This document shows, in pieces, positions 669-19,529 of a stretch of 64,000 nucleotides of DNA. The stretch spans positions 289,961 through 353,960 of the forward strand of contig NZ_BAAAOK010000005.1 of assembly GCF_039530285.1 (NCBI RefSeq). Direction: 5' to 3'. Under the pieces are notes generated by a model. The model worked only from the letters and a program-made list of their open reading frames with translations, did no database searches and was not told the DNA's origin. Made by a program: the position numbers and the translations under genes. This stretch comes from Actinomadura alba. Its GTDB lineage: Bacteria > Actinomycetota > Actinomycetes > Streptosporangiales > Streptosporangiaceae. Position 1 is the first letter of the stretch, and each line of letters opens with the position of its first letter.

Positions 669-1826
669 TCAGTCGACCGGTACCAGAGCCAGCTTGCCGG
701 GATCCAGGCGCAGGTAGACCTCGGTCCCCGGCTTGATCGACACCGCCGGGTTGCCCCGGGCGCGGATCTCGTGGCGGCCGACGCTGACGACATGGTCGAC
801 GGACTCCCCGAGGAACGCGCGGGTCGTCACGGTGCCCGTCCACTCGTTCGGCACCTCGCCCGCGCGGGAGCCCGTGCTGACCTCCACGGCCTCAGGGCGG
901 ATCGAGACGATGACGTCGCCGCCGATCGGGATCGCGGCGGCCGCGTCGAGTACGAGCAACCCGTCCGCCGTGTTGACGGTGTAACGGTCGCCCTCCTTGG
1001 ACACCACGTTGCCCGCGATGAAGTTCGACGTGCCGATGAACTCGGCGACGAACCGGCAGTTCGGGTTCTCGTAGATCTCCCTGGGACGCCCGAGCTGCAT
1101 GACGTCGCCGCTCTTCATGACGGCGATCGAGGTGCTGAGCACCAGCGCCTCGGTCTGGTCATGCGTGACGTACACCGAGGTGATCCCGAGGTCGCGCTGC
1201 AGCCGCTTGAGCTCGTAACGCAGGGACTCGCGGAGCTTCGCGTCGAGGTTGGACAGCGGCTCGTCCAGCAGCAGCAGCGGGGGCTCGATGACCAGCGCGC
1301 GGGCGAGGGCGAGCCGCTGCTGCTGCCCGCCGGAGAGCTTGGTCGCCTGCCGGTCGGCGAGCTCGGCCAGCTCCATGGTGTCCAGGACGCGCATCACCCG
1401 TTCGGCGATCTGTTTCTTGCCGAGCCGTTCGTTACGGCTCTTCACCTGCAGGGGGAAGGCGACGTTGTCGAACACCGACATGTGCGGCCAGATGGCGTAG
1501 GACTGGAAGACCATGCCCAGCCCCCGCTCGTTGGCGGGGACGTTCACCGGTTTGCGCCCCGCACCGCCGGAGAACAGGACCCGGTCCCCCACCTCGATGG
1601 TCCCCGAGTCGGGACGCTCGAGGCCGGCGATCGAGCGAAGGGTGGTGGTCTTGCCGCAGCCGGACGGGCCGAGCAGGGTGAACAGCTCGCCGTTCTCGAC
1701 GTTGAAGCTGATGTCGCTGACGGCGAACACCCTGGCCGGTTCGGTCTTGTCGGTCTTCGACCCGCGCGCGTGGCGCCGGCGGCGCTCGCCGTCGAAGGTC
1801 TTGACGAGGTTGTCTATGCGGAGCAC
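669..1826 (-). CDS. ABC transporter ATP-binding protein (PotA/FbpC-like, with C-terminal TOBE-like extension)
   Basis: 385 aa ORF; Walker A GPSGCGKTT, ABC signature LSGGQQQRLALARAL, Walker B LLLLDEP. Confidence 0.85.
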   Translation of the reverse strand: MLRIDNLVKTFDGERRRRHARGSKTDKTEPARVFAVSDISFNVENGELFTLLGPSGCGKTTTLRSIAGLERPDSGTIEVGDRVLFSGGAGRKPVNVPANERGLGMVFQSYAIWPHMSVFDNVAFPLQVKSRNERLGKKQIAERVMRVLDTMELAELADRQATKLSGGQQQRLALARALVIEPPLLLLDEPLSNLDAKLRESLRYELKRLQRDLGITSVYVTHDQTEALVLSTSIAVMKSGDVMQLGRPREIYENPNCRFVAEFIGTSNFIAGNVVSKEGDRYTVNTADGLLVLDAAAAIPIGGDVIVSIRPEAVEVSTGSRAGEVPNEWTGTVTTRAFLGESVDHVVSVGRHEIRARGNPAVSIKPGTEVYLRLDPGKLALVPVD

Positions 1827-1850
1827 TTGTCCTCCTGATTGGGCGTTGGC

Positions 1851-3578
1851 TCAGTCTTGCCGCAGCCCGACCTTGGCGCCGAGCTTGTAGGCGATGCTGA
1901 CGAGGACGACGAGGGTGAGCACCATGACGACGCCGAGCGCCGACAACACGGTGAACTGGCCGTTCTCGTACTGCTCGAAGATGAGGATGGAGAGGACCTC
2001 GTTGCCCGGGCTGTAGAGCAGGATCGAGCTGGACAGCTCCCGGAACGAGACGACGAGAATGTAGATCCATCCGGCCATGAGGCCCGGTGACAGCAGCGGC
2101 AGCAGCACCCGCCGGAACGTCTGCCACCAGCTGGCACCACTGACCTGCGCGGACTCCTCGAGCTCCGAGGAGATCTGGTGCATCGACGTGACCGCGTAGC
2201 GCATGCCGTACGGCATGTACCGCGTGCAGTAGGCGATCAGCAGGATGAAGATCGTCCCGTAGATCGGAATCGGGCTGCGCAGGTAGACGAACGAGAGCGC
2301 GAGCCCGAGGACGAGCCCGGGGATCACCAGCGGCACGAACGCGAACTGGTCGACGAGCTGCCGTCCGGGGATCCGGGAGCGGACGACGATCCAGGCGGCG
2401 ATCGCCATCCCCGCCATGACGAGGGTGGCCGAGCCGATGCCGAGGAAGAGAGAGTTCTTCAGCGCGGTCATCGCCTGGGACATCTCCAGCAGCTCGCGGT
2501 AGTTGTCCAGGGTCATCGACTTGATCGCGGCGAGCGACGGCGGCTGATAGTAGGGCAGGAACGACGTGTAGAGAAGGACGAGCAGCGGCCCGACCACCGT
2601 GCAGAAGAAGTACAGGACGATGGCGACCCCGATGACCGGCCGCCATTTGCCGAGCTCCATCGGACGGGGCCGGAAGCCCTTGCCGGTCACGGTCTGGAAG
2701 CTCTTCCCGGACCTGCCGACGATGTTGGAGATCGCGACACCGATCATCGCGAGCACCAGGAGGCCCACCGCCAGCGAGCCGGCCGCGCCGAGGTCCGGCG
2801 GATAGGTTCGCAGGACGAAGTAGATGCGGCTGGTGAAGACGTAGATCCCGTTCTGCAGGCCGAGCAGCGCCGGGACCTCGAAGCTCTCCAGGCTGCGGAC
2901 GACCATGATCAGCACGGCCGCGACGATGGCCGGGCGGGTCAGCGGCACCGTGATCTTCAGGAAGACCCGCCACCGGCTCGCCCCGCACATCAGCGCGGAC
3001 TCCTCCAGCGAGGGGTCCATCGACCGGAACGCCGCCACCATGAGCAGGAACACGATCGGCGACAGGTGCAGGCCCTCGACCCAGATCATCCCCCAGACCG
3101 TGAAGACGTCGAGGACGCCCGGGCCGAAGACCGGCTCCAGCAGCTTGTTGAGCAGGCCGATGTCCGGGCTGGCGAGGAAGATCCACGAGATCGTGTAGAG
3201 GATGCCCGGGATGATCAACGGAATGATCGACGCGGCGAAGAACAACGCCTTGAACGGAACGTTCGTACGGACGTTGAAGTAGGCCAGGGCGGTGCCGACG
3301 ACCAGCGACAGCACGGCCGACCCGATCGCGAACCACAGCGAGTTCACGACCAGCGCGCCGATCTCGTCGTCGCCGTACGCACGCGAGAAGCCGTCCAGGG
3401 TGAAGCCCTGGGCGTCGAAGAAGGTCCCCCAGAGCAGGTAGTAGAGCGGCACCAGCGCCAGGTAGCCGATCACACAGGCCACGGCGACGATGATGATCAG
3501 TTTCGGTTTCGGCCACCACCGGCGCCGTCGGCCGGCCGCCGCGTCGGTGGCCGGCACGGCAGTCGATGCCGTGGTCAT
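1851..3578 (-). CDS. ABC transporter permease, fused two-domain (FbpB/ThiP-like)
   Basis: 575 aa ORF, highly hydrophobic, two tandem BPD-transporter-like halves; adjacent to ATPase and SBPs on same strand. Confidence 0.8.
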   Translation of the reverse strand: MTTASTAVPATDAAAGRRRRWWPKPKLIIIVAVACVIGYLALVPLYYLLWGTFFDAQGFTLDGFSRAYGDDEIGALVVNSLWFAIGSAVLSLVVGTALAYFNVRTNVPFKALFFAASIIPLIIPGILYTISWIFLASPDIGLLNKLLEPVFGPGVLDVFTVWGMIWVEGLHLSPIVFLLMVAAFRSMDPSLEESALMCGASRWRVFLKITVPLTRPAIVAAVLIMVVRSLESFEVPALLGLQNGIYVFTSRIYFVLRTYPPDLGAAGSLAVGLLVLAMIGVAISNIVGRSGKSFQTVTGKGFRPRPMELGKWRPVIGVAIVLYFFCTVVGPLLVLLYTSFLPYYQPPSLAAIKSMTLDNYRELLEMSQAMTALKNSLFLGIGSATLVMAGMAIAAWIVVRSRIPGRQLVDQFAFVPLVIPGLVLGLALSFVYLRSPIPIYGTIFILLIAYCTRYMPYGMRYAVTSMHQISSELEESAQVSGASWWQTFRRVLLPLLSPGLMAGWIYILVVSFRELSSSILLYSPGNEVLSILIFEQYENGQFTVLSALGVVMVLTLVVLVSIAYKLGAKVGLRQD

Positions 3579-3669
3579 GCCCTCACCCCACTTCCGGACC
3601 GCTGTGCGGTGTATCGGGTGCAGGCGCGCGGCGCCGCCATCTCCGGCGGCGCCGCCGCGCGCTGGTCGT

Positions 3670-4818
3670 TCACTTTCCGTCGACCTGTTCGCCGGTGGAG
3701 ACGACCTGCTCGTAGCGCTTGCTCCACGTGCTGCTCTGTTCCACCATGGTCTTCACGTCGACCGGAATGATCTCCACGCCCTTGAGCGGGTCGTCGCCCT
3801 CGACGATGGCCGGGGTGAGCCCCTCGCCCACGAGGACCTTCTGGCCCTCATCGAGCATCCAGTCGGCGAACAGCATCGCCGCGGCCGGATGCTTGGCGCT
3901 CTTCATGAGCCCGAACCCGTTGGGCCGGGCGACGACGGGCTCCACGTACGGCTGGTACGCCACCGGAGCGCCCTTCGCCCTCGCGCGCTCCACGATGTAG
4001 GAGTAGTTGGAGGCCACGACCGAGAACTGGCCGGCCGAGAGCAGCTCACCCTGCACGGTGTGCCCCTTGGCGATCATCGCGCCATCGGCCATCCCGGCGA
4101 AGATCTTGTCGACCTCCGCCTCGGTCTTGCCCTGCTTCCTCCAGTAGCCGTGCAGCGTGAGGTACCAGTCGTAGTCGCTGATCTCCAAGGACAGCTTGCC
4201 GTCCCACTTGGGGTCGGCGAGGTCCTCCCACGACTTCGGCTCCTGGCCCTTCGGGACGAGCTTGGTGTTCCAGCTCGGCGCGAAGAGGTTGAACCGGGTG
4301 GCCGTCCAGCCCGCGAACCGGCCGGCCTCCGGCACGATCTGACGCCGCTCGCCGTCGTACTTCGCGAGGATGCGCTCCTTGTCGAGCGCGAACAGCTCGT
4401 TCGCGTTGGTCTCGACCACGTCGTTGCCCTGGTAGCGGGCCCCGTGCTCGGTCAGGATCCGCTGCAGCACGGTCTCGGACCCGGCCCGGTAGAGGTTCAC
4501 CTCAACGTCGAAGGCATCACCGAACGCCTCGGTGACCTTGCTCGCGACGTCACTGGTCATCGAGGTGTAGAGGTTGAGGGTGCCTTCCTGCTCGGCCAGC
4601 TTGACCAGCCGGTCGCGCCGCTCTTTGCCCTTGAGCCCGTTGATCTCGTTGTAGACCTTCTCCGCGGCGGTCGGCCCGCCACCGCCGGCGGCCCCCCCGC
4701 CCCCCGAGGTCGGAGAGCCGCCACAACCGCTCACGACCACCATGACCGCGACACCGGCGGCGAGCAGGCGCCTCGCCTGCGGCCCGGTACGCCGGGTGGG
4801 GGGTCTCATGGTCCTCAT
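3670..4818 (-). CDS. ABC transporter solute-binding lipoprotein (Fe3+/polyamine-type), paralog 1
   Basis: ORF 3670..4866; lipobox VVVSGCGG after signal peptide; probable start MRTMRPP at 4818 giving 4-nt overlap with upstream paralog. Confidence 0.75.
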   Translation of the reverse strand: MRTMRPPTRRTGPQARRLLAAGVAVMVVVSGCGGSPTSGGGGAAGGGGPTAAEKVYNEINGLKGKERRDRLVKLAEQEGTLNLYTSMTSDVASKVTEAFGDAFDVEVNLYRAGSETVLQRILTEHGARYQGNDVVETNANELFALDKERILAKYDGERRQIVPEAGRFAGWTATRFNLFAPSWNTKLVPKGQEPKSWEDLADPKWDGKLSLEISDYDWYLTLHGYWRKQGKTEAEVDKIFAGMADGAMIAKGHTVQGELLSAGQFSVVASNYSYIVERARAKGAPVAYQPYVEPVVARPNGFGLMKSAKHPAAAMLFADWMLDEGQKVLVGEGLTPAIVEGDDPLKGVEIIPVDVKTMVEQSSTWSKRYEQVVSTGEQVDGK

Positions 4819-5954
4819 TTGATCTCCTGACCTGCCTTGACGATGTCGGCGTAGAGGTTGTCCCACTTCTTCGGGTCGGCGAGCAGTTCCTGCTCCGGGG
4901 GCGCGATGATCTTGAGGCCGGCCACCGGGTCCTTCTCGGTCGGGATGGCGCCGATCCGGAACGCCTTCTCAAGGATCTTCTGACCCTCGGTGAGCTCCCA
5001 GTCCGCGAAGAGCATCGCCGCGGCGGGGTGGCTCGCGGTCTTCATGAGCGCCACGCCGTTGGGCCGCATCACGATGGGCTGGACGGGTTCTCCCGAAGCG
5101 GGGCGCCAGCTGACCGGGGCGCCCTTGTCCGCCGCCTTGTCGATGGTGTGGCTGTAGGAGGACACGGTCACCGCGAACTGACCGGCCGACAGCAGTTCGC
5201 CCTGTGTGGTGTGTCCTTTGGCGATCTTGGAGTTGCCAGCGATCTTGGTGAGCAGGTCGCGGACCTCCGCCTCGGGCCGGCCCTGCTTCAGGTAGTACTG
5301 GTAGATGCCGGCGAACCAGTCCACGTCGCCGACCTCCATGGAGACCTGGCCCTTCCACTTCGGGTCGGCCAGGTCCTCGAACGATTTCGGCTCCTGCCCC
5401 GGCTTCACCTTGTCGGTGTTCCAGCCGACGACGAAGACGTTGAACCGGGACGCGGTCCAGCCGTTCGCCTGGCCCTCCTTGCGAACCGAATCGCGCAGCT
5501 GACCCTTGTATTCGTGGAACATGCCCTCGGATTGCATGATGTTGAGCTCGCCGGCGTTCGTGTCGACGAAGTCGTTGCCGAGGTAACCGGCCTGCTGCTC
5601 CTGCCTGACGCGCTGGAGCACCGACTCGGAGTTGCCGCGGTAGACGCTCACTTCGATGTCGTAGGTCTCCTCGAACCCTTCGACCAGCTTGTCCATGTCG
5701 GTGTTCGAGGTGTAGATAGCGAGTTTTCCCTCCTTCTCGGCGAGTTCGACGAGCGTCTTGCGCCGCTCCTCACCGGTGAGCCCGTTGATCCGGTCATAGA
5801 CCGGCTGGGCCTTCGCGGCGGCCTGCGCGGCCGCCTTGTTGCCCGCGCCCTTGGCGGACGCGCCGCCCGAGGCGGTCGGCGAGGCGCCGCAGGCCGTGAG
5901 GAGGAGGGCGGTGGCCAGGAGTGCCACCGATCCGAGAGGTGTGTGGTGTCGCAT
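4815..5954 (-). CDS. ABC transporter solute-binding lipoprotein, paralog 2
   Basis: 379 aa ORF; lipobox LLTACGAS; clearly homologous to downstream SBP (e.g. ...TSNTDMDKLVEGFEETYDIEVSVYRGNSESVLQRV / ...TSMTSDVASKVTEAFGDAFDVEVNLYRAGSETVLQRI); GGGAG RBS before ATG. Confidence 0.8.
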   Translation of the reverse strand: MRHHTPLGSVALLATALLLTACGASPTASGGASAKGAGNKAAAQAAAKAQPVYDRINGLTGEERRKTLVELAEKEGKLAIYTSNTDMDKLVEGFEETYDIEVSVYRGNSESVLQRVRQEQQAGYLGNDFVDTNAGELNIMQSEGMFHEYKGQLRDSVRKEGQANGWTASRFNVFVVGWNTDKVKPGQEPKSFEDLADPKWKGQVSMEVGDVDWFAGIYQYYLKQGRPEAEVRDLLTKIAGNSKIAKGHTTQGELLSAGQFAVTVSSYSHTIDKAADKGAPVSWRPASGEPVQPIVMRPNGVALMKTASHPAAAMLFADWELTEGQKILEKAFRIGAIPTEKDPVAGLKIIAPPEQELLADPKKWDNLYADIVKAGQEIK

Positions 5955-7250: not shown

Positions 7251-7276
7251 CCCCAAAAATGAGGAGAGGGGAACTA

Positions 7277-8557: not shown

Positions 8558-9301
8558 TCAGTCCAGGGCGAGCCCCGACAGCCGGAGCCGGGCCACATGA
8601 TGCCGCCAGATGTTCAGGTCGTTGAACGACGATCCGAGGTCCGGCAGTTCCGCAACGTCCTCCGGGGTGAGGTCGGCCGCGCGGTCACCCAGCCGCGCCC
8701 GTTCCACGCTGACGCGGGCGAGCACGTCCAGGGTCAGCGCGCGCACGACGGCCTGCTCGACGGCGTGCGGGCCGGACCCGACCGTGGTGATCCCGTGTCC
8801 CCGCATGACGCACACCGTGGACGCCCCCATCGCCTCGACGAGTTCGCGGCCGAGTTCCGGCCGGCGTACGAGGACGGCCCGCGGGTACACGGGGACCCCT
8901 TCGAGGGCCATGCGGGCGGCGGGGATGTTGTACGCGCCGAACACCGGACGCAGCGGCACCTCCTCCACGCCCGCCACCAGGACCGCGGGTGGATGACAGT
9001 GCACGACGGCGTCGACCTCGGGACGGGCTCTCAACACCTCGCCGTGGATCGGCAGTTCGTTCGGGACGGCCCAGCCCTCGAGCTCCCCCCGTCCGTCGAG
9101 GTCGACCTGACGCACGTCCTCGTCGAAGGTGAACAGCAGCCCCTGCTCCTGCGGGCCCCGGCAGCGGACGAGCATCCGGTCCGCTCCGACCCGTACGCTC
9201 ACGTGGCCGAGGATGTCCTCGGCCAGGCCGGCGTTCGCGAGGATGCGGCAGGCCAGCGCGATGGTCCGGCGCAGGTCGGTGAACTCGGTGGGGACGGTCA
9301 C
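8558..9301 (-). CDS. class II aldolase/adducin-family protein
   Basis: In-frame with ORF 8558..9538; proposed GTG start (rc cac 9299-9301) gives MTVPTEFTDLRRTIALACRILANAGLAEDILGHVSVRV..., typical family N-terminus; upstream 80 codons look like wrong-frame GC-rich translation. Confidence 0.7.
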   Translation of the reverse strand: MTVPTEFTDLRRTIALACRILANAGLAEDILGHVSVRVGADRMLVRCRGPQEQGLLFTFDEDVRQVDLDGRGELEGWAVPNELPIHGEVLRARPEVDAVVHCHPPAVLVAGVEEVPLRPVFGAYNIPAARMALEGVPVYPRAVLVRRPELGRELVEAMGASTVCVMRGHGITTVGSGPHAVEQAVVRALTLDVLARVSVERARLGDRAADLTPEDVAELPDLGSSFNDLNIWRHHVARLRLSGLALD

Positions 9302-9310
9302 GCTGGTCTC

Positions 9311-9540
9311 CGTTCGGCAGGATGCTGACGTGGATGGCGCCTGGGTCGGTCCGCGCGCCGGCGACGCGCAACGCGTGGTGCGCCGCGTCGAGCGGGAACC
9401 GGTGGGTGCACAGCAGGTCGAGCGGGTAACCCCGCGAACGGATGATCTCGATCGCCGGGTCCACACTGCGATGGCGAGCCGGAAGTCTCGGAAGTGGTCG
9501 TAGCCGGTGGTGGCGATGCTCAGGTGGAGATTGCCCATGG
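9311..9540 (-). pseudogene. 3' remnant of a Zn-dependent alcohol dehydrogenase (MDR) gene, frameshifted
   Basis: Frame A: ...SIATTGYDHFRDFRLAI; frame B: AIEIIRSRGYPLDLLCTHRFPLDAAHHALRV..., together matching the C-terminal ~75 aa of sorbitol/threonine dehydrogenases (…THRFPL…); no N-terminal coding part upstream. Confidence 0.35.
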
Positions 9541-9575: not shown

Positions 9576-9588
9576 ATTGGTAAGACAG
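9576..9588. promoter_or_regulatory. Operator-like motif ATTGGTAAGACAG upstream of bicupin gene
   Basis: 3 mismatches to ATTGGTATGACCA consensus found at 16294 and 28689. Confidence 0.2.
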
Positions 9589-9702
9589 TTAGGCCTATGC
9601 CTAGCGTACTGTCGATCGGGCTGTCGGGTCAGAGCGGTCATCTGTGACCGGCGGAACCATCACACCGGCTGGCGCGGCGGCGCGCCGAGAAAGCGAGTGA
9701 AC

Positions 9703-10731
9703 ATGGGCAAGAAGGGACGCGTCTTCGTTCGTGGTCTGACGTCCGAGACCTACGGCTTGAACAAGTTCCGGCACGAGCAGCTGGCTGCCCCGAGGGTGCG
9801 CGACGACTCGGTCGTCGTCGACGACGCGAAGGTCGGCCACTCGGGCGACTCGGCCCAGTCGCGTACGTGGTGGCGCGTCGGGCCGGGCGATGATCCGTTT
9901 CTGACCCAGACGCTGCAGGTGCATTTCGTGGAGTTGCCGGCACAGACTTCGAACCACGGTCACGGGCATCAGAACGAGGCCGCGTTCTACATCCTTGAGG
10001 GCGCGGGCTACGAGATCCACGACGACCAGCGTTACGACTGGAAGCAGGGCGACCTGGTTTTCGTGCACACCGACTCGGTGCACCGGCATTTCAACCCGTA
10101 CGACGAAAAGGCCGTTGCATTGGTGATGAAGGCCAAATGCACGTGGATGTTCATGGGCCTGATCCAGCAGGGCCGCAGCGGTCCGATCGATCGGCCGGAG
10201 GACTTCGGCGAGCGCGAGGACTGGTCGCGGATCTGGACGCCGGGCGTGTTGGAGCGTAAGAAGGTCGTCACCCCATCGGACGGCGTGTGGGAGACGACAC
10301 CGATGGGGCGCCTGCGGGTGATGAACAGCGCGGCCATGACCGAGAACCGGCAGTTCGGCGTCGACGTGTTCGAGCTGACGATTCCGGCGGCGAGCAGGTC
10401 GGGCAAGCACTGGAAGATGGCCGATGAGATCCTCTACGTGCTCGACGGCGAGGGGTACTCGCTGCACTGGGAGGTGGAGGCCGAGATCGCGGAGAAGTAC
10501 TACGCCCGCATCGCCAAGGAGCCGACCCGGCACGAGATCAAGAAGGGCGACACGCTCTACGTCCCGCAGAACACGATCGCCCAGCACTTCGCCGCCGACG
10601 GCACCCCGCTGCACCTGTTGTCGGTCCAGAACCGGGTGTTCAAGCACCTCGGCTACGACGCGGTCCACTACTTCGAGGATGCCCCTGAGTACGCGTCGTC
10701 CTCGCTGACCGGAGCGACCGCGGGCCGCTGA
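9703..10731 (+). CDS. bicupin ring-cleavage dioxygenase (gentisate 1,2-dioxygenase-like)
   Basis: ATG at 9703 (MGKKGRVF) within ORF 9577..10731; two cupin halves with His-rich motifs (HGHGHQNEAAFYILEG..., HFNPYDE). Confidence 0.65.
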   Translation: MGKKGRVFVRGLTSETYGLNKFRHEQLAAPRVRDDSVVVDDAKVGHSGDSAQSRTWWRVGPGDDPFLTQTLQVHFVELPAQTSNHGHGHQNEAAFYILEGAGYEIHDDQRYDWKQGDLVFVHTDSVHRHFNPYDEKAVALVMKAKCTWMFMGLIQQGRSGPIDRPEDFGEREDWSRIWTPGVLERKKVVTPSDGVWETTPMGRLRVMNSAAMTENRQFGVDVFELTIPAASRSGKHWKMADEILYVLDGEGYSLHWEVEAEIAEKYYARIAKEPTRHEIKKGDTLYVPQNTIAQHFAADGTPLHLLSVQNRVFKHLGYDAVHYFEDAPEYASSSLTGATAGR

Positions 10732-10802: not shown

Positions 10803-11261
10803 TCAGGTCAGAGGATCGCCACGCTCCAGCGCGGCGATCTGGTCCAGTCGTTGCTGGTGGCGGCCGCCCTTGAAGGGGGTGGCGAACCACAGATCAGTGA
10901 TCTCGTCGGCCAGTTCCGGGCTGAGAACCTTGGCGCCGATCACGAGCACGTTGGCGTCGTTGTGGGCACGGGAGATCTCCGTCGTGAACAGGTCGTGGCA
11001 CAGCCCGGCGCGGATACCGCGGATCTTGTTGCAGGCGATCAACTCGCCCATTCCGCTGCCACCCACCATGATTGCGCGGTCGGCGTGACCGTCGACGACC
11101 CGGCCGCAGACGTCTGCGCAGAGCGGCGGATAGTCCACCGTCTCCCCGTCGGCGCCGTATGCTCCGCGGTCGTCGGCGTCGTGCCCCTGTGCGGTGAGCC
11201 GGGCGATCAGGCGCGCCTTCAACGCAAAGCCATTGTGATCCGCCGCGATGGCGATCCGCAT
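10803..11261 (-). CDS. rpiB: ribose-5-phosphate isomerase B / RpiB-LacAB family sugar-phosphate isomerase
   Basis: MRIAIAADHNGFALKARL... GGSGMGELIACNKIRGIRAGL... HNDANVLVIGAKV: RpiB family signatures. Confidence 0.8.
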   Translation of the reverse strand: MRIAIAADHNGFALKARLIARLTAQGHDADDRGAYGADGETVDYPPLCADVCGRVVDGHADRAIMVGGSGMGELIACNKIRGIRAGLCHDLFTTEISRAHNDANVLVIGAKVLSPELADEITDLWFATPFKGGRHQQRLDQIAALERGDPLT

Positions 11262-11325
11262 GGCCATCATCCTCACAAACGGTTCGACTGGTGGGTTTGC
11301 GTACGTCGGGTGCCGACCGGCATGC

Positions 11326-12273
11326 TCAACCGGTCAGATCTCGAGTGCTCTCCGCGAACAGGGACTCCACGGCGGGCCGCCGGTCGAGGATGCCCTGGCT
11401 CGTCGCATGCTCGATGAGCTCCTCGATGACGGCGCGGTTCGGCGCTATGCCGTACGGCAGCGGGTCCGCACCGGTGATCTCCATGACGTGCCGGTAGATG
11501 AGATCCGTCGGTGTCGGCGCCTCGATCGCGTCGCGGCGCAGCCGGTCGACGTACAGGTTCTTGGCCTCGGCGAAGGCCTCGAACACGTCCGTGGCCAATT
11601 CGGGGTGCGCCGCGAGCAGGTCGTCCCGCACGACCACCAGGTGGTTGATGGGGTAGTGACCGCGTCGGCGCAGCGCCGCGAAGCCGGCCTCCGTGGCGTC
11701 GGGTATCAGCGGCACGAGGCCGGGAGGGCTGGGATCGACACCGATCGCGGCCGCCAGTTCGCCCCCGGCGACCAGATCGGCGAGGCGCCGTCCCGGTTGC
11801 ATCGGCACGACGTTGGCCGGTGGGCGGTACTCGGCGACGTGCTCGTCCCCGGAGAGCACCCAGGTCACCTTGCCCAAGTCGACACCGTACTCGTCCTGCA
11901 GGACGCCGCGCGCCCACACGCCGGTCGTCACGGTGTATCCGCGGTTGACCCCGACCTCCCGGCCCTCGAGATCCTTCGGATCCCGGATGCCGGCCTCCGG
12001 GCTGCGCACGATGGCGCCGTGATGGAACCCGCGCACCAGGAAGATCGGCAGTGCCGTGAACGGCTTGCCGTTGGCCTTGGCACAGAGGTAGGTCGTGATC
12101 GCCATCTCGCAGACGTCGAATTCGAGTCCTCGAACCATCCGGCGGAAGGCATCAACGAGAACCGGGACCTCCTCGAAGGCGAAGCCGAACCGTTTGGGGG
12201 TGACCGCGCCTTCCTTGAGGGCACGGTTGTTCCCCTGGGTCCGGGTCACCGTCCGCAGCCGCATGTCCGGCAT
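11326..12273 (-). CDS. 4,5-dihydroxyphthalate decarboxylase-like protein (PhtD family), paralog 1
   Basis: 315 aa; recalled family signature MRLRTVTRTQGNNRALKEG...FEEV...EFDVCEMAITTY; paralogous to 18533..19525. Confidence 0.55.
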   Translation of the reverse strand: MPDMRLRTVTRTQGNNRALKEGAVTPKRFGFAFEEVPVLVDAFRRMVRGLEFDVCEMAITTYLCAKANGKPFTALPIFLVRGFHHGAIVRSPEAGIRDPKDLEGREVGVNRGYTVTTGVWARGVLQDEYGVDLGKVTWVLSGDEHVAEYRPPANVVPMQPGRRLADLVAGGELAAAIGVDPSPPGLVPLIPDATEAGFAALRRRGHYPINHLVVVRDDLLAAHPELATDVFEAFAEAKNLYVDRLRRDAIEAPTPTDLIYRHVMEITGADPLPYGIAPNRAVIEELIEHATSQGILDRRPAVESLFAESTRDLTG

Positions 12274-12575: not shown

Positions 12576-13349
12576 ATGTCATCGGGTGGGACGCCGGGCG
12601 ACAGGAATACGGCGGACTTGTTCGGCCCGGTGAGCGTCGGTCGCATCTCTGATGTCATCGTGGCGCAGATGCAACTCCTGATAAGGGAGGGCAAGCTCGT
12701 CCCCGGCGACCGGCTGCCCAGCGAGCGCAGTCTGTGCGAGCGGTTCGGCGTCAGCAGGGTGACGATCCGCGAGGCTCTTCGGGTGCTGGAGGCCAGCGGA
12801 CTGGTGGGGATCCGCGTCGGGGCTCGGGGAGGCGCCTTCGTCACCCAGCCGTCCAGCGAACGCGTCGGGGAGAGTCTGGCCAACCTGATGACCCTGACCC
12901 CGATGACCGCCGGCGACGTCACCGAGGCCCGCATGGTCTTCGAACTCGGCATCCTGCCGCTGGTGGTGGAGCGTGCCACCGAAGAGGACATCGCGGACCT
13001 GCGGGCCCTCGTCGAGCAGGGCGTGAGCGCGCTGGAGAGCGGCTCTTACACCATGGCGATGTCGGCGGCATTCCATGTGCGGGTTGCCTCCTCCACCCAC
13101 AACCCGGCGATCGAGATGCTGGTGCACAGCTTCCACGGCCCCATGCTCATGTCGCTCCAGCAGGCCCGAGTCTCTGCGCCGTTGATGGGTCACCTGGGCG
13201 CGCAGGAACACTTCCAGCTCGTCGAGGCGATCGAGCAGCGGAACGTCGACCGGGCCCGCGCCATCATGACCCGTCACCTGCAGCGCACCGCCGCTCGCGT
13301 GGCGGAGAATCGGGATCCCAGTCTGGCGAATCTGGAGAGCGGCCACTGA
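12576..13349 (+). CDS. GntR-family transcriptional regulator (FadR/FCD subfamily), paralog 1
   Basis: 257 aa; N-terminal wHTH ...PGDRLPSERSLCERFGVSRVTIREALRVLEASGLV..., C-terminal FCD helical domain; GGAGGGA RBS. Confidence 0.85.
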   Translation: MSSGGTPGDRNTADLFGPVSVGRISDVIVAQMQLLIREGKLVPGDRLPSERSLCERFGVSRVTIREALRVLEASGLVGIRVGARGGAFVTQPSSERVGESLANLMTLTPMTAGDVTEARMVFELGILPLVVERATEEDIADLRALVEQGVSALESGSYTMAMSAAFHVRVASSTHNPAIEMLVHSFHGPMLMSLQQARVSAPLMGHLGAQEHFQLVEAIEQRNVDRARAIMTRHLQRTAARVAENRDPSLANLESGH

Positions 13350-13439: not shown

Positions 13440-15080
13440 TTATTCGTCGGGTAGCCGGTCGTGTCGGGGGTCCTGGTTGAAGATGAGCGACTTGATCGTG
13501 ATCGGCACGGTGTTCGACGGGAAGCGTATCCGGCCGATATCGACGTAGTCGAAGTCCCGCAGGCTCAGGCCGTCGATGACCAGCAGTTCGCTGGTGACCG
13601 CGAGCTCTTCCCGGAGCAGTCTGCCGAGCGTCATGGCGACGTCCCCGTCGAGTATGACGTAGACCGGTCTGCCCTGCGCGATCCGGTCGGCGAGGCCGTC
13701 CCGGAGGCCGCACGCGAAGGGGAAGAGCCTGTCGTAGCTCGGCAGGCCATCCCATGACATGGCCAGGGCGACGTCGGCGTCGGTCTGGCCGATGTCGAGG
13801 GCGACGAGGTGGCGCCGGATCGCGGCTGCGACCGCCGCCGCGTCGACCGTCTCCCCGAGCTCGTAATTCGGCCGCACCACTTGCAGGTTGCGGCGCGGCA
13901 GCAGCGCGTCAGGGTCGGTGATACAGCCGGTGTTCCCGCTGAGCTGCACGCTGTACTCGGACGCGCCCAGCGCGGTGGCGCGGATGCACTCGCCCTCCGG
14001 CAGGAGCGGGAACGGCAGCGCGCCAGAGTCGACCCGGCGACGCAACGCCCGGCCGAGCGGCCGGCCGAGATCGCCGAACTGCCTGCTCTCCCGGTCGTAT
14101 ACGTACTCCGCGACCCCGCCCGAGAACATCACCCCGTCGATCGGGCCGACCTCCGCCAGCGGCTCGGTGAGGTACAGCCGCGCGACATCTTGGGGGAGCG
14201 GATCGGCGGTGAGCGCGGCGACGAGCGCGTCCGCCATCATCTCCGCCACCTTCTCGAGCTCCTCCGGGCGAGCGACGTCGCCGAGCTCCCAGGCGTACCC
14301 GGCGCGGGCGGCGTGACCACGGCCGGCCGGCTCGAGGCGGACGATACGGTCTTGATCGTCGACGACCTGGAGTCGGCCGCCAATGTGCACCGCGGCGGTC
14401 GTCATGACCTGACCGCGGTCCAGCACCGCGAGCTTCGTCGTCCCGCCCCCGATGTCGATGTTCAGGATGCGCAGCCCGGTGTCGTGCGACGCCTTCGCCG
14501 CGCCCGAGCCGTAGGAGGCGAGCATGGCCTCCATGTTGTGGCCCGCGGTCGCGTTGACCAACTCGCCCCCGCGCTCGGCCAGGACGCTCGCGATGGCCTC
14601 GGCGTTGCGGCGGCGCAGCGCCTCACCGGTGAGGATCACGACTCCGGTGTCGACGTCGGCAGGGTGGACGGCCGCCGCATGGTAGGCCCGGTCGATGATC
14701 GAGCCCAGAGCCTCAGCGTCGATGTGCTCGGCGCTCGCATACGGAGTGAGCGCGACCGGGGAACGGTACCCGGTCTGCCGGCGGACCACGATGTACCGGG
14801 TCGTCAGGTCCTCGCTGATCCGCCGCAGATGCAGACGGGAGAACACGACCTGCGTGCCGGACGACCCGATGTCCATCCCCACGCTGTGCAGCGTGACGTT
14901 GTCCTGCTGCCAGATCGGGTTGTCCTCGATCGGGCTCAGCGCCTCATCGTCGTGCACATGGTCGTGGTCCGGGACGTACGCCGAGTAGACCGTGGGCACT
15001 TCGGTGAGGTGCTCGAGGCCATGGCCGTCGCCATGGACGTGGTCGTGCGCACCGGCGTGCCTCACGGTCGTACTCCTCAC
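13440..15080 (-). CDS. EutA-like ASKHA-superfamily ATPase (ethanolamine ammonia-lyase reactivase family) with His/Asp-rich N-terminal extension
   Basis: Recalled E. coli EutA signatures align: LHSVGMDIGSSGTQVVFSRL, ILNIDIGGGTTKLAVLD, DYVDIGRIRFPSNTVPITIKSLIF; first ~60 aa HDHVHGDGHGLEH...PDHDHVHDDE; likely real start GTG 15065 after GAGGAG. Confidence 0.65.
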   Translation of the reverse strand: MRSTTVRHAGAHDHVHGDGHGLEHLTEVPTVYSAYVPDHDHVHDDEALSPIEDNPIWQQDNVTLHSVGMDIGSSGTQVVFSRLHLRRISEDLTTRYIVVRRQTGYRSPVALTPYASAEHIDAEALGSIIDRAYHAAAVHPADVDTGVVILTGEALRRRNAEAIASVLAERGGELVNATAGHNMEAMLASYGSGAAKASHDTGLRILNIDIGGGTTKLAVLDRGQVMTTAAVHIGGRLQVVDDQDRIVRLEPAGRGHAARAGYAWELGDVARPEELEKVAEMMADALVAALTADPLPQDVARLYLTEPLAEVGPIDGVMFSGGVAEYVYDRESRQFGDLGRPLGRALRRRVDSGALPFPLLPEGECIRATALGASEYSVQLSGNTGCITDPDALLPRRNLQVVRPNYELGETVDAAAVAAAIRRHLVALDIGQTDADVALAMSWDGLPSYDRLFPFACGLRDGLADRIAQGRPVYVILDGDVAMTLGRLLREELAVTSELLVIDGLSLRDFDYVDIGRIRFPSNTVPITIKSLIFNQDPRHDRLPDE

Positions 15081-15114: not shown

Positions 15115-16230
15115 CTACGGCTTGGGCGGCAGCGTCTTCAGCTCGATCGCGTACGCGTCGTCCATCTGCGGCTCTATGTCGTGCTTGGCCAGGGCCTCGC
15201 GGAAGGTCTCGCGCACGTACGGCGACTCGTCGGCGTAATCGATCTGGTCGCCGCCGACGCGCTGGCTGATCCATGCCTTCGGCACGCCCTGCGCGTTGCG
15301 GACCGATACCACCTCGTGTTTGAAGGCGAGGTAACGGGCGGGCTCGAGGCCGGTGTTGAAGTGTTGGTGGAACCACATGTTCGGGGGGACGATCAAGGTG
15401 CCGGGGCCCCACTCGTAGCGTCGCGGCTCCTCTCCCTCAGGCCACATCAGGCTGTAGCCCGTGCCCGTCAGCATGATGACGTGGGCGCCGGGGCCGTGGC
15501 GGTGTCCCTTCTTGTACGTCGCGATCGGGAACTGCGAGATGTGGCTGTTCATCGAGCCCTTGGCCATCGCGAAGCGGATGTGCCCGCCGCCCGCGCCGCG
15601 TTCCTTCGCTTCGATCAGCGGCAGGTTGGCCGCGTCGGCGACGAAGTTCGTGTCCAGGAGCAGGCCCTTCTGCTCACCCTTGGGCGAGAAGTAGCCGGGC
15701 TCGCCGTTGAAGCGGTTCGGGAAGTCCTTGGGGGTGCTGAACACGAAGTCGACGTCGTCGTAGAGGTTGATGACCGGAGGCATATTCGTCGAGGAGACGA
15801 AACGAGCCGCCTTCTGCCCTGAGCCGTTGAAGTGCTGGTGGTGGGCGTTGAGCGGGATGGCGAACAACGAGCCGGCCTGCCACTCGAATGTGACCTCGGC
15901 GCCGGCGTCGTTCCAGACCTTCGTGGACCCCTGCCCGTCGAGGACAAGGATCATCTCCTCGAACAGCTGCCGCTGCGGCGCCAGCTTGCCGCCCGCCGGG
16001 ATCTCGCAGACGTAGCAGTCGTTCGACGTGCGTGTTGCCTCGTGATTGATGAAGACGCCTCGCCCGCCGCGCCGCTCCCAGGGCTTGAGCTCGACCGTGC
16101 GCAGATCCGGCACATAGTGGGCGGCGATGATGTCCAGCCCCTCAGCGGCCACCCAACGGGTGTAGGGGGACTCCTTCTCGGTGACGAACTTCGCCGCGAG
16201 TTGGTCGTTGACGAGCGCGTCCCTGGCCAT
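15115..16230 (-). CDS. bicupin ring-cleavage dioxygenase (gentisate 1,2-dioxygenase-like), second copy
   Basis: 371 aa; two cupin halves (GVFINHEATRTSNDCYVCEIPAGG..., HRHGPGAHVIMLTGTGYSLMW...WFHQHFN). Confidence 0.65.
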   Translation of the reverse strand: MARDALVNDQLAAKFVTEKESPYTRWVAAEGLDIIAAHYVPDLRTVELKPWERRGGRGVFINHEATRTSNDCYVCEIPAGGKLAPQRQLFEEMILVLDGQGSTKVWNDAGAEVTFEWQAGSLFAIPLNAHHQHFNGSGQKAARFVSSTNMPPVINLYDDVDFVFSTPKDFPNRFNGEPGYFSPKGEQKGLLLDTNFVADAANLPLIEAKERGAGGGHIRFAMAKGSMNSHISQFPIATYKKGHRHGPGAHVIMLTGTGYSLMWPEGEEPRRYEWGPGTLIVPPNMWFHQHFNTGLEPARYLAFKHEVVSVRNAQGVPKAWISQRVGGDQIDYADESPYVRETFREALAKHDIEPQMDDAYAIELKTLPPKP

Positions 16231-16371: not shown

Positions 16372-17115
16372 CTAACGACCCTGGTTCGCCACCGCCTGGG
16401 CGCCCTCCGCGGCGGCTTCCGGGTCGAGGTAGCGGCCACCGCGCTCGACCGGGGTCAGATTCTCGTCGAGTTCGTAGCGCAGGGGAATACCCGTAGGGAT
16501 GTTCAGCGCCATGACCTCCTCACGGCTCAGGCCGTCGAGGTGCGCGACGAGCGCCCGCAGCGAGTTGCTGTGCGCCACGACCAGGACCGTCTGCCCGGCG
16601 AGCAGGTCGGGCGCGATGACGTCGTACCAGTAGGGCAGCAGGCGGGCGATGACGTCGGCGAGGGACTCGGTCCGCGGCATGAGGTCGCGGGTCAGCCCGG
16701 CGTATCGCGGGTCACTCGCAACCTGCCACTCGTCGTCGGGCCCGATCGGCGGCGGTGGTACGTCGTACGACCGGCGCCAGAGCTGGAACCGCTCCTCGCC
16801 GTACTCCTTCAAGGTCGCCTTCTTCTCCTTGCCCTGCAGCGCGCCGTAGTGCCGCTCGTTGAGCCGCCAGTGCCGGGTGGCCGGGATCCAGACCCGGTCG
16901 GCGGCCTCGAGCGCGAGGTTGCCGGTGCGCACCGCACGCGTCAGCAGGGAGGTGTGCACCACGGTCGGCAGCAGCCCGGCCTCACGCAGCAGTTGCCCGC
17001 CGCGCCGTGCCTGCTCCTCGCCGAACGGCGTGAGATCGACATCGACCCACCCGGTGAACAGGTTCTTCGAATTCCATTCGCTCTCGCCGTGGCGAAGGAG
17101 AATCAGCGTCTTCAT
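16372..17115 (-). CDS. gpmA: 2,3-bisphosphoglycerate-dependent phosphoglycerate mutase
   Basis: [29 protein letters not shown]... full-length GpmA signatures incl. RHGESEWN and catalytic His motif [11 protein letters not shown]. Confidence 0.9.
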
Positions 17116-17243: not shown

Positions 17244-18503
17244 ATGTTCTCGGGTTGGGAGGGATGGATGGCGTTGCGGAAGTCGGCGGTCAAGCAGGCC
17301 GGATGCGCCTCGGTCGTGCAGGTACGCCTGTTGCCCACACCGGCCGACGCCGAACGGCTGGCCACAGCCGTGACGATCTGCAACACCGCCGCCACCTATG
17401 CCTCCCGCATCGCTTGGGAACGGCGGGTGTTTGGGCAACTGGCGTTGCACCGGCTGATCTACCGGCACCTGCGAGACCATTTCGTCGGCCTGGGGGCCCA
17501 GGCGGCCGTACGGGCGATCGCCCGCGTGGCCGATGCCTACACCAACCGCCGCGCAACAAAGAAACGGGCGCATATCTTCCGGGCGCACGCCGCGGTGCCC
17601 TATGACGCCCGGATGATCACCTTCAACCGGGATGCCCGCATCGCCTCCCTCTGGACCCCCACCGGCCGCGTCCGTGCGGCCTACACCGGCCGGGACCAAG
17701 ACCTCAAGGCCATCGCCGAGCTGCCGATCGGCGAATGCGACCTTATCGAACGCAAAGGCACCTGGCTGCTGCAGATCGCCGTCGCGCTCCCCAGACCCGA
17801 GACCGCGGATCCGTTCAATGGGTTCCTCGGGGTCGATCAGGGGACGGCGAACCTTGCCGTTACCTGTGACGGCGAAGTGCTGCCCGGCAAAGCCCTCCCC
17901 GGAACGATCGAGAACAACGGTCACATCCGCGCTCTTCGCGACCGTCGGCACCGCCAGCGTAAGCGCCTGCAAGCCAAGGGCACTTCTTCGGCGCGGCGCC
18001 GGCTGCGTGTCCTGTCGGGGCGTGAGTCGCGGATGATGGCCGATATCAACCACCAAATATCCAAGCGTGTGGTGCGTGAGGCCGAACGCACCGGCCGAGG
18101 TGTTGCTATGGAAAAACTTTCCGGCATCCTCGGGCGGGTAAGGGCTCACCGGTCCCAGCGACGCACCCTGCATGGCTGGGCGTTCGCCCAGCAGATCGCC
18201 TTCACCCGGTACAAGGCCGAACGCGTCGGCATCGCCTTCATCCTGGTTGATGCGGCCTACACCAGCCAGACCTGCCCCAACTCCGATTGCGGGCATGTGT
18301 CGAGGCGGAACCGGCACGCACGCGGCATGTTCCGCTGCCAAGCCTGCGGCCTCGCTGGGCACGCAGACCACATCGCAGCCATCAACGTCGCCTACCGCGG
18401 CGCGGATGGCTGGGGCGCTGTCAACCGTCCGCACGCTACCGGTCTCCCTTCATCCAGACGGGCTCCGGAGAGCAAGCCACGGGCTTCAGCCCGTGGTCGT
18501 TGA
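17244..18503 (+). CDS. tnpB: TnpB (IS605 OrfB-family RNA-guided endonuclease / transposase accessory protein)
   Basis: 419 aa; RuvC-like GVDQGTANLAVTCDG, zinc finger CPNSDCGHVSRRNRHARGMFRCQACGLAGHADHIAAINV; probable start MALRK at 17268. Confidence 0.85.
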   Translation: MFSGWEGWMALRKSAVKQAGCASVVQVRLLPTPADAERLATAVTICNTAATYASRIAWERRVFGQLALHRLIYRHLRDHFVGLGAQAAVRAIARVADAYTNRRATKKRAHIFRAHAAVPYDARMITFNRDARIASLWTPTGRVRAAYTGRDQDLKAIAELPIGECDLIERKGTWLLQIAVALPRPETADPFNGFLGVDQGTANLAVTCDGEVLPGKALPGTIENNGHIRALRDRRHRQRKRLQAKGTSSARRRLRVLSGRESRMMADINHQISKRVVREAERTGRGVAMEKLSGILGRVRAHRSQRRTLHGWAFAQQIAFTRYKAERVGIAFILVDAAYTSQTCPNSDCGHVSRRNRHARGMFRCQACGLAGHADHIAAINVAYRGADGWGAVNRPHATGLPSSRRAPESKPRASARGR

Positions 18504-18532: not shown

Positions 18533-19525
18533 TCAAATGACCGCAGACTCCGTCGACTCGGGGGCGAACAACTCCTCGGGTGTCCACAACCGCTTGGACA
18601 GCCCCTGCTCGTGGTGGTAACGCAGGAAGGTGGCCAGTGTCTCGTGGTTGCCCTCGATCCCGTAGGACCAGTAGTCCTTGCCCAGCAGGGCTCGTGCTTC
18701 CTCGAGTTGCGGGGTCAGCCAGGGAAGCATGAACCGCAGCGCCGAGGTGTCGTAGAGGTTCGCGTACGCCGCCTCCTTGGCCGCCAGCAGGGCCTTGTAG
18801 AGCGACTGGGCGACCCAGGGATGGCGGTCGTAGACATCGCGCCGGATCACGACCACGTGCATGATCGGGAAGATGCCTGTCGCCGCGTAGTACTCCTTCT
18901 CGCTGGCGACGACATCGGTGAACACCCGTCGCACACGGGGGTCGCCGGCGACGAACGGGCTCGGGACGCGCGGAGTGCACAGGGCGTCGATCTCGCCCTC
19001 GGCCAGCATGGCGGAGAGCGTCCTGTCCTCGGGAATGCGGCTGATCCGAACCGAGTCCGGCAGGTCGACGCTCGCCTTCTCGATGCGCCCGGCCGTCTCC
19101 TGCCCGCCCGTGAGGTAGGTGACCGAGTCGAACGGGACGCCGTGCCGGTCACCGAGGATGCCGCGCATCCACACGCAGGCGGTGAGCTGGTACTCCGGTG
19201 TGCCGACCACCTTGCCCCGCAGATCCTCCGGCGACGAGATGCCCGCGTCGGCGTGGCAGTAGAGCGATCCATGCCGGAACATGCGGGAAGTGAAGACCGG
19301 CAGGGCCACGAACGGCGAGGGGTCGGTGCGCAGCGAGACGACGTAGGAGGACAGCGACATCTCCGCCACCTCGAACTCCTGGTGCCGCATCATGCGGAAG
19401 AACGTCTCCTCGACGGGCAGCCGCAGATAGGTCAGGTCGATCCCGTCGGGGCGGATCGTCTCCTCGTTCAGGGCCCGCGTCCGGTCGTAGTCGCCGCAGG
19501 CGAAGGTGAGGTGCAGCCGGGGCAT
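18533..19525 (-). CDS. 4,5-dihydroxyphthalate decarboxylase-like protein (PhtD family), paralog 2
   Basis: 330 aa; MPRLHLTFACGDYDRTRALNEETIRPDGIDLTYLRLPVEETFFRMMRHQEFEVAEMSLSSY, same family signature as 11326..12273. Confidence 0.55.
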   Translation of the reverse strand: MPRLHLTFACGDYDRTRALNEETIRPDGIDLTYLRLPVEETFFRMMRHQEFEVAEMSLSSYVVSLRTDPSPFVALPVFTSRMFRHGSLYCHADAGISSPEDLRGKVVGTPEYQLTACVWMRGILGDRHGVPFDSVTYLTGGQETAGRIEKASVDLPDSVRISRIPEDRTLSAMLAEGEIDALCTPRVPSPFVAGDPRVRRVFTDVVASEKEYYAATGIFPIMHVVVIRRDVYDRHPWVAQSLYKALLAAKEAAYANLYDTSALRFMLPWLTPQLEEARALLGKDYWSYGIEGNHETLATFLRYHHEQGLSKRLWTPEELFAPESTESAVI

Positions 19526-19529
19526 GGTC

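Follow-up and report, generated by a model that had tools for sequence, protein, structure and literature searches.

The EutA-like gene and its product

We analysed a stretch of 64,000 nucleotides of the Actinomadura alba genome (contig NZ_BAAAOK010000005.1, positions 289,961 to 353,960), hereafter called the window. On its minus strand, an open reading frame (ORF) of 546 amino acids was confirmed at 13440..15080, which encodes an ATPase resembling EutA, the protein that reactivates ethanolamine ammonia-lyase. Upstream of it, on the same strand at 15115..16230, lies the gene of a 371-residue bicupin protein, referred to as cupin371. The EutA-like gene is one of a large group within the EutA family that has not been studied; its members carry a His-rich tail and nearly always lie beside one highly conserved double-cupin protein, and we consider it very likely that the ATPase and cupin371 are partners, making up a two-gene module.

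The EutA-like protein matches the Pfam EutA profile (PF06277) with an E-value of 9.5e-113 and 378 bits (cut-off 27), over residues 63-535 of 546 and profile positions 2-475 of 475. When compared by BLASTP with EutA of E. coli K-12 (b2451, taken as query from the annotated eut operon), the protein showed 34% identity (residues 59-529 against 6-465, E 6e-65). The preliminary description of this locus had claimed a full-length alignment with E. coli EutA, and the BLASTP alignment indeed includes all three motifs that it quoted. The NCBIfam EutA equivalogs NF007991-NF007994 were missed, with a best score of 303 bits against a cut-off of 598, and the other models of this set gave 189-250 bits against cut-offs of 769-952. 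Being below the equivalog cut-offs and devoid of eutBC linkage, the protein is best classed, as far as sequence comparison goes, as a member of the EutA family outside EutA proper. Database searches returned 6534 homologues at E <= 1e-3, the best 120 of which are 75-100% identical and 512-565 residues long; NCBI, JGI and UniRef label these ATPases EutA.

In an alignment of 21 diverged homologues, the motifs DIGSSGTQ (phosphate-1), DIGGGTTK (phosphate-2) and SGGV are invariant, as are residues D70, D209-G211-G212 and G321-G322, down to 38% identity. The AlphaFold2 model built from the same alignment (mean predicted local distance difference test score, pLDDT, of 80) has an ASKHA core, and Foldseek matched it to generic actin-fold ATPases (PilM, Ppx/GppA, HgdC, MreB, DnaK), while a sequence search of the PDB found no solved EutA structure. 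The protein therefore possesses the phosphate-1, phosphate-2 and adenosine motifs and the actin-like fold that define an ASKHA ATPase. No Cys residue or Fe-S motif was found among the invariant or near-invariant columns of the alignment, so that the conserved Cys residues acting as Fe-S ligands in Archerase or RACo-type proteins are missing.

The His-rich N-terminal tail

The likely start codon of the ATPase gene is the GTG at 15065, which gives a 541-residue product (13440..15065, minus strand). A Shine-Dalgarno sequence, GAGGAG, can be read at 15073..15078 on the same strand, separated from this GTG by a 7-nucleotide spacer. The N-termini of homologues (MRH.../MTH...) begin at the equivalent position, and the 541-residue product does not differ from the A. 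alba protein at NCBI (P0001; 100% identity). The protein extends 53-58 residues beyond the N-terminus of E. coli EutA, and residues 1-44 of this extension (MRHAGAHDHVHGDGHGLEHL...PDHDHVHDDE; 14934..15065, minus strand) form a disordered tail rich in His and Asp. The first 41 residues contain 9 His and 9 Asp/Glu, whereas all 500 residues after them together have 11 His (binomial P 2e-7 for the His enrichment). In the AlphaFold2 model, residues 1-49 (numbered on the 546-residue ORF) have a pLDDT of about 30, and the segment that follows the tail, EDNPIWQQDNV, is packed as short helices on the actin-like core.

Twelve homologues from six genera keep the pattern V(Y/H)SAYxPDHDHxHDDE..P(L/I)EDNPIWQQDNV downstream of a variable His-rich run. 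The corresponding motif in proteobacterial orthologues is HxLADH..G....HxHDG..ADHDHD.F...GPLEENPIW.QDHV. The type of tail is therefore common to Actinobacteria and Proteobacteria, with 6-15 His per 60 residues, and the EDNPIW.QD(N/H)V segment is invariant across phyla. Since these motifs are conserved in homologues, we conclude that the tail is translated and under selection. The His/Asp-rich extension of about 60 residues put forward in the preliminary description is thus real, disordered according to AlphaFold2 and of a conserved type; the alternative it had left open, that the extension is untranslated, is contradicted by the conservation between phyla and by the Shine-Dalgarno sequence at GTG 15065. 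It is true that high-GC genomes produce long spurious 5' extensions, and over-extended ORF calls were seen for many homologues in this same analysis. Nevertheless, an annotation artefact, with translation beginning near the MDIG region, deserves practically no credence: the Shine-Dalgarno sequence before GTG 15065 is strong, the extension is conserved at the amino-acid level including the segment packed on the core, and no start codon with a Shine-Dalgarno sequence is present near the MDIG site.

The bicupin partner

Cupin371 has only faint Pfam and NCBIfam matches (weak Cupin_2/Cupin_1 in Pfam), and its 7447 database homologues are named either 'cupin' or 'ethanolamine ammonia lyase-activating protein'. 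The best 120 of these, which include alphaproteobacterial proteins, are 79-91% identical to it. The protein is strongly constrained, with the same 79-91% identity between Actinobacteria and Alphaproteobacteria and a mean column identity of 81% in an alignment across phyla. Its AlphaFold2 model is a bicupin (pLDDT 75, predicted template modelling score 0.80). The best PDB matches given by Foldseek were oxalate decarboxylase, MncA and seed vicilins, with a template modelling (TM) score of about 0.48 and about 13% identity, and a sequence search of the PDB gave no close solved relative. The C-terminal domain carries H243-x-H245-x4-H250 at cupin motif 1 and H288-Q-H-F-N at motif 2, and the HQHFN motif is repeated in the N-terminal domain, giving twin motifs. 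This arrangement suggests H243, H245, H250 and H288 as a candidate metal site with three to four His ligands.

Cupin371 shares its fold with the bicupin metalloenzymes OxdC, MncA, gentisate 1,2-dioxygenase and the Ni quercetinase QueD, and resembles them in having His-based motif-1 and motif-2 positions, but differs in its distance from every solved structure. To our knowledge, none of these four enzymes needs an ATPase partner. The flanking gene had been described as a bicupin dioxygenase; the bicupin part of that name stands, with 371 residues on the same strand as the ATPase gene, whereas the faint Pfam matches and the generic bicupin fold do not establish that it is a dioxygenase. A second bicupin of 384 residues is encoded at 9577..10731 on the plus strand (Pfam Cupin_2, E 2e-17). 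This gene is often found nearby but is less tightly linked; many Streptomyces and proteobacterial loci have it, sometimes split in two.

Conservation of the ATPase-cupin pair

Exact matching of the 546- and 541-residue sequences gave no recorded contig, and loci were therefore gathered through homologues. A scan restricted to one genome per species gave 80 loci related to the window, which became 86 with six individual look-ups; in the synteny counts, cupin371 was scored as present at >= 50% identity. The gene adjoins the ATPase gene on the same strand in 34 of 35 actinobacterial loci, the exception being a 2-kb contig, and is present in all 28 actinobacterial loci with at least 5 kb on both flanks. 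The neighbourhood of EutA homologues in Actinobacteria, a check proposed in the preliminary description, is therefore conserved. Five of the look-ups (Streptomyces, Planotetraspora, two Pseudonocardia and an 'Arthrobacter' metagenome-assembled genome) showed the order 371/377-residue cupin, then EutA-like. Among the other, mostly proteobacterial loci, cupin371 lies within 10 kb in 18 of the 32 that are well flanked, and the operon order is often EutA-like, ATP-binding cassette (ABC) permease, ABC ATPase, cupin371, solute-binding protein. Look-ups made from the cupin side found a EutA-family gene in the same operon in 3/3 loci.

The two proteins also diverge together, as the identities of ATPase and cupin to the window proteins co-vary with a Spearman coefficient of 0.80 (57 pairs). 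In the main lineage of pairs, the ATPase is 60-94% and the cupin 72-96% identical to the window proteins; in a paralogous lineage the values are 40-44% and 29-33%, respectively. This paralogous pair adjoins the main pair in several Betaproteobacteria and in Egicoccus. A metagenome scan (80 loci, L090-L169) was seeded with a distant EutA-like subfamily about 40% identical to the target. Here, 40 of the 58 loci with genes on both sides contain a cupin371-family gene, nearly always at position +1 or -1. The cupin of this subfamily has 372 residues and shares with cupin371 the motifs FAIPLN..HFNGSG, HIS.(F/M)P.G(T/S)YKKGHRHGPG.HV and FHQHFNT.

It is this near-universal synteny, together with the co-divergence, the paralogous pairs and the recurrence of the same pairing in the distant subfamily, that argues for a partnership. 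The pairing is old, general and independent of phylum, which is the signature of two proteins acting on each other. The preliminary description had suggested the adjacent cupins as partners of the ATPase: for the upstream cupin371, synteny and co-divergence bear this out; the second cupin at 9577-10731 is not the conserved partner. It had also called the ATPase an orphan, a term that applies relative to eutBC alone, since the gene is half of a conserved two-gene module.

Some individual loci may be mentioned here. The paralogous cupin and EutA-like pair lies in the first 5 kb of L035, L036, L045, L064, L069, L070, L073 and L078, and at 5923-8624 of L089; in Betaproteobacteria it is followed by genes for a prolyl-aminopeptidase-like hydrolase, a solute-binding protein and NicO. 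Besides the cupin, the neighbours in the distant subfamily are a Rieske oxygenase, a reductase of the phthalate dioxygenase reductase type, a class II aldolase, an NMT1-like protein and MarR. In loci from alphaproteobacterial metagenome-assembled genomes (L042, L046, L049, L055 and L063), an orthologous, His-tailed EutA-like gene lacks a cupin371 gene within 10 kb. Its neighbours there are a response-regulator gene and genes for several TctC-type binding proteins, and its partner may be elsewhere or different. A metagenome subgroup of EutA-like proteins with the tail ...LHEGHEDEFG...HPMWRSERITLN has MoxR/TPR neighbours and no cupin. Finally, P0364, a 606-residue singleton from the ENA metagenomes, is EutA-like to about residue 470 and continues with a domain 32% identical to the C-terminal cupin of cupin371. 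It is either a natural fusion or an artefact of assembly or deletion, and was not used as evidence of interaction.

The surrounding aromatic-acid cluster

The genes of the window were called by third-position GC and then subjected to Pfam, NCBIfam and PDB sequence searches. One large cluster spans about 1-29.5 kb. Most of its genes are on the minus strand, and this is the strand of every window gene in this section unless marked (+). It starts with an MFS_3 gene (3-659) and an ABC importer (669..5954), composed of an ATPase with a TOBE domain (669-1826), a fused permease (1851-3578) and two lipoprotein solute-binding proteins (3670-4866 and 4815-5954), as identified by tblastn with cluster representatives; the same transporter occurs in 43-44 of 78 loci. 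There follow genes for a protein of the beta-hydroxyacid dehydrogenase type (6271-7356), a major facilitator superfamily transporter (7259-8554, +), a protein of the class II aldolase/decarboxylase type (8558-9538), the second bicupin (9577-10731, +), an RpiB-like protein (10803-11276) and an NMT1/SsuA-like protein of 315 residues (11326-12273). The GntR regulator that had been reported as a flanking gene is present at 12576..13349 (+), with Pfam GntR and FCD domains. It is convergent with the ATPase gene, and loci of Planotetraspora, Actinoallomurus and the Blastococcus type have it at the same place.

On the other side of the pair, a histidine phosphatase gene (16372..17115; Pfam His_Phos_1, E 1e-32) is the first of a run formed with the cupin371 and EutA-like genes; it is found at offset -2 in 12 of the 15 loci carrying it. 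Next to it is a TnpB (IS605-OrfB-type) gene (17244-18503, +; Pfam OrfB_IS605 and Cas12f1-like TNB), whose third-position GC is 0.78 as compared to about 0.9 in the neighbouring genes. The histidine phosphatase and NMT1-like genes that it separates here are directly adjacent in the Planotetraspora and Actinoallomurus loci. The TnpB gene looks like a recent insertion in the operon, just upstream of the three-gene run, on which it may be polar.

The catabolic part of the cluster begins with an NMT1-like protein of 330 residues (18533-19525). This and its 315-residue paralogue are NMT1/THI5/SsuA-like proteins with a solute-binding-protein fold, according to weak Pfam and NCBIfam matches, and the NMT1-like genes are among the most constant cluster members (37 loci). 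Further on are LigJ, 4-oxalomesaconate hydratase (19530-20552; PDB 6dxq, E 1e-142), LigK, 4-carboxy-4-hydroxy-2-oxoadipate aldolase (20597-21286; NCBIfam equivalogs above cut-off), a Zn-dependent alcohol dehydrogenase (21351-22469), an alpha/beta hydrolase (22615-23694), a PanB-like protein (23552-24385), a 171-residue ORF (24477-24992), a Rieske oxygenase (24994-26280), a ferredoxin (26421-26744), a ferredoxin reductase (26969-28252) and a second GntR regulator (28752-29522, +). The best solved relative of the Rieske oxygenase is 9INA (E 1e-135), the isophthalate dioxygenase of Comamonas testosteroni KF1 (PMC12445078). The genes from 18533 to 28252 also accompany the pair in loci of Streptomyces, Planotetraspora, Actinoallomurus, Pusillimonas and Nevskia.

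Identification of LigJ, LigK and the isophthalate-dioxygenase-like oxygenase agrees with the aromatic-catabolic island recognised previously. Judging from these matches, the cluster is predicted to be a phthalate-family oxygenase system that feeds the lower protocatechuate-4,5/gallate route and ends in LigJ and LigK. We attempted to name its substrate (isophthalate, 5-hydroxyisophthalate giving gallate, or phthalate-like acids) from the combination of this oxygenase with the class II aldolase-type decarboxylase, LigJ and LigK. The attempt was dropped, as it left the PanB-like, NMT1-like, RpiB-like and histidine phosphatase genes unaccounted for.

Two other arrangements were observed. At 50591-60976 (+), the window contains two sets of molybdenum-hydroxylase subunits (CO-dehydrogenase/xanthine-dehydrogenase type) together with a CoxD-like AAA_5 ATPase (54282-55313) and a CoxE-like von Willebrand factor A protein (55306-56502), that is, another enzyme accompanied by a maturation ATPase. 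Streptomyces clusters contain a bicupin of about 355 residues followed by an AAA ATPase of about 295 residues (L001 18348-20318, where the two are fused; L002 18348-20319; L013, L017 and L029). This second, unrelated cupin and ATPase pair of the supercluster is absent from the window.

Absence of a B12-dependent lyase from the window and related loci

The preliminary description had noted that no B12-dependent lyase or microcompartment gene accompanies the ATPase, and both searches that bear on this point came back empty. When the window was searched by tblastn with E. coli EutB, EutC, EutL, EutM, EutT and EutQ, no match was obtained, nor did these queries match anything in the 86 and 80 related loci (166 in total). 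Pfam scans of the other ORFs called in the window revealed no B12-binding or microcompartment domain, and an Rfam scan of the window and four related loci (L045, L050, L068 and L088) detected no cobalamin or other riboswitch. Within the E. coli K-12 eut operon, to which eutA belongs, the distance of about 6.8 kb between eutA and eutB is due solely to the CPZ-55 prophage inserted there. On the evidence of the window and the related loci, the ATPase is very probably not an ethanolamine-lyase helper.

A broader version of this idea is that the protein is a genuine EutA, or a reactivase of another B12 enzyme, whose lyase is encoded elsewhere in the genome, and that the cobalt-type permeases found in related loci reflect cobalamin metabolism. 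The full-length family match speaks for it, and so do the database names, EutA for the ATPase and 'ethanolamine ammonia lyase-activating protein' for many homologues of cupin371; moreover, NicO, HupE and CobW can serve cobalt (PMC2667541). We nevertheless regard it as very improbable. EutB and EutC are absent within 10 kb in all 166 loci and from the whole window, which is the part of the A. alba genome that was searched, the equivalog cut-offs are missed by about half, and neither a B12 riboswitch nor a B12-binding domain was detected in the sequences scanned. The context that is fixed across phyla consists of the cupin and aromatic-acid genes.

Which metal

Pfam searches and de novo clustering of neighbouring ORFs identified a NicO/NiCoT permease gene in 12 of the 86 loci (Pfam NicO, E 4e-14) and a HupE/UreJ permease gene in 5 (Pfam E 7e-55), in two of which it lies between the cupin371 and ATPase genes. 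An additional, Inquilinus-type locus has the order EutA-like, permease, cupin371, solute-binding protein, HupE_UreJ, ABC ATPase, Rieske oxygenase, alcohol dehydrogenase, 167-residue ORF, cobW. NiCoT and HupE/UreJ are Ni/Co transporters, and their genomic position usually marks a neighbouring Ni or Co enzyme (PMC2667541). Ni-cupins exist, as Streptomyces QueD shows (PMC4416304).

The N-terminus of the distant subfamily is M-H-[DE]-x-[DE]-[FL]-x-H-x-H, in which H2 does not vary and H8 and H10 hardly vary. Its first three residues, MH[DE], match the N-terminal MHE motif by which HypA binds Ni(II) and whose His2 is essential (PMC7055735). The metal is probably Ni or Co, as far as these hints go. 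Iron, which had been assumed for the adjacent cupins, is not what the accompanying metal genes point to, since those that travel with the pair encode NicO, HupE/UreJ and a CobW-type GTPase.

A proposed role for the ATPase and its alternatives

The reading that we favour, although we see it as an even call, is that the ATPase is an ATP-driven factor for metal insertion into the bicupin or for its reactivation. The ASKHA ATPase would dock on the bicupin, and ATP binding and hydrolysis would open the metal site of the latter in a nucleotide-dependent cycle. The flexible His/Asp-rich arm would carry the metal, most likely Ni(II) or Co(II), and pass it to the bicupin. The outcome would be either a first loading with metal (maturation) or the replacement of a lost, wrong or oxidised ion (reactivation), and the bicupin would act as a catabolic enzyme in the aromatic-acid pathway encoded around it. 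That the two proteins are in physical contact and that ATP drives the transfer is inferred, as are the metal concerned and the reaction catalysed by the bicupin. The model is borrowed from EutA and DdrA, which open B12 enzymes to exchange a dead cofactor. More tentatively, and with rather more doubt than confidence, we propose that EutA-like proteins with a His-rich or MH[DE] N-terminus form a class of metallochaperones or reactivases that has gone unrecognised, namely ATPases of the actin fold by which Ni(II)/Co(II) is inserted or replaced in a dedicated, strongly conserved bicupin of aromatic-acid catabolism.

Known systems resemble this scheme in part. EutA of E. coli and Salmonella belongs to the same Pfam family over its full length, with the same ASKHA motifs and C-terminal domain, and the window ATPase presumably performs the same kind of ATP-driven opening of a client. 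E. coli EutA differs in lacking the His/Asp-rich tail of 44-58 residues, and loci of the window type differ in having a bicupin neighbour and no eutBC, microcompartment genes or B12 signal. DdrAB and GdrAB include an ASKHA-type ATPase that is dedicated to one client, encoded beside it, and exchanges the inactivated cofactor. The window ATPase shares with them its type and its position beside the client, but the match is at the generic ASKHA level, there is no small beta subunit and the client is not a B12 enzyme. In HypA, HypB, UreE, CooJ and COG0523/CobW, a flexible His-rich segment is joined to NTPase-driven delivery of the metal, and the genes adjoin those of the client and, in some genomes, those of NiCoT or HupE permeases. 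Such a His-rich N-terminal segment is present in the window ATPase at the sequence level; the P-loop fold of the G3E GTPases is not, and an ASKHA protein takes the place of a G3E GTPase or HypA/UreE fold, with a cupin as client instead of urease, hydrogenase or carbon monoxide dehydrogenase. By analogy, the ATPase may work like a Ni/Co metallochaperone without being a G3E member. XylT-type ferredoxins, small [2Fe-2S] reductants that reactivate catechol 2,3-dioxygenase without ATP, offer a further parallel, as dedicated repair factors for a metal-dependent enzyme in an aromatic catabolic operon; they differ in being Fe-S proteins that use no ATP, whereas the window ATPase has no Fe-S motif.

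Several observations weigh against metal delivery by the ATPase. Cupin371 is missing within 10 kb from 14 of the 32 well-flanked non-actinobacterial loci. In the paralogous lineage, the ATPase has a tail without His, GGRVFFSNVRRSLEEEDEI, and is still paired with a cupin; the partnership thus does not rest on the tail, which is an add-on. The link with Ni/Co permeases concerns about 18 of about 90 loci, all proteobacterial, and no NicO or HupE gene was found in the window or in the actinobacterial loci. The ABC importer that travels with the pair is of the FbpABC-like type (solute-binding protein, fused permease, TOBE) and resembles Fe(III) systems, for which reason iron may still be the metal; loci that carry both this importer and NicO speak against its being a Ni/Co importer itself. 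As far as we know, all Ni/Co insertases are G3E GTPases or have other folds, and we know of no ASKHA metallochaperone.

Synteny and co-divergence would fit equally well if the bicupin and the EutA-like protein were two subunits of one enzyme that spends ATP at each turnover, for example in an ATP-coupled ring-opening, carboxylation/decarboxylation or phosphoryl transfer, with the tail binding a catalytic or structural metal. ASKHA proteins do include kinases and subunits of ATP-dependent hydantoinases and acetone carboxylases, the three-gene run of Actinobacteria begins with a histidine phosphatase gene, the pairing persists in the lineage devoid of the His tail, and P0364 joins a EutA-like part to a cupin371-like domain. 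We hold this explanation to be unlikely, though still deserving serious consideration. The nearest characterised relatives, EutA at 34% identity, are non-catalytic reactivases, a disordered His-rich tail of variable length is typical of metal storage or delivery rather than of an active site, a need for metallation better accounts for the Ni/Co permease neighbours, and the fusion is a single unverified sequence.

Alternatively, hydrolysis could be coupled to the reduction of an oxidised cupin metal, as in RACo and the activators of 2-hydroxyacyl-CoA dehydratases, or, without ATP, in XylT. The presence of the HgdC activator among the Foldseek matches, the faint BcrAD_BadFG matches of some homologues (precomputed Pfam), the ferredoxin and reductase genes of the cluster and the well-known inactivation of ring-cleaving Fe(II) enzymes by oxidation are consistent with such a redox reactivator. 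It appears improbable to us, given that the ATPase alignment has no conserved Cys or Fe-S motif, that the Rieske oxygenase accounts for the ferredoxin and reductase, and that Ni/Co permeases do not fit a purely redox repair.

Significance of the module

Literature searches returned no publication on a EutA-like/cupin module. The labels 'EutA' and 'ethanolamine ammonia lyase-activating protein' are attached to thousands of database entries from organisms and loci with no ethanolamine lyase nearby, and are very probably wrong. The module is small, with two genes, and has cultured carriers (Actinomadura alba, Planotetraspora mira, Streptomyces spp., Blastococcus and Pusillimonas caeni), so that the proposal of an ATP-driven metal-delivery factor is directly testable.

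There is a fair chance that the module represents a new class of metal-insertion ATPase. If so, the scaffold of a B12 reactivase would have been re-used to service a mononuclear metal enzyme, and a third fold would be added to the known metal-insertion NTPases. It would also be an ATP-dependent maturation system for a cupin, a superfamily whose members are generally assumed to self-metallate. The bicupin would then be a new enzyme dependent on Ni or Co, with a wide distribution among soil Actinobacteria and Proteobacteria, and would mark a highly conserved, possibly Ni/Co-dependent enzyme step in the bacterial breakdown of phthalate-like and lignin-derived aromatic acids.

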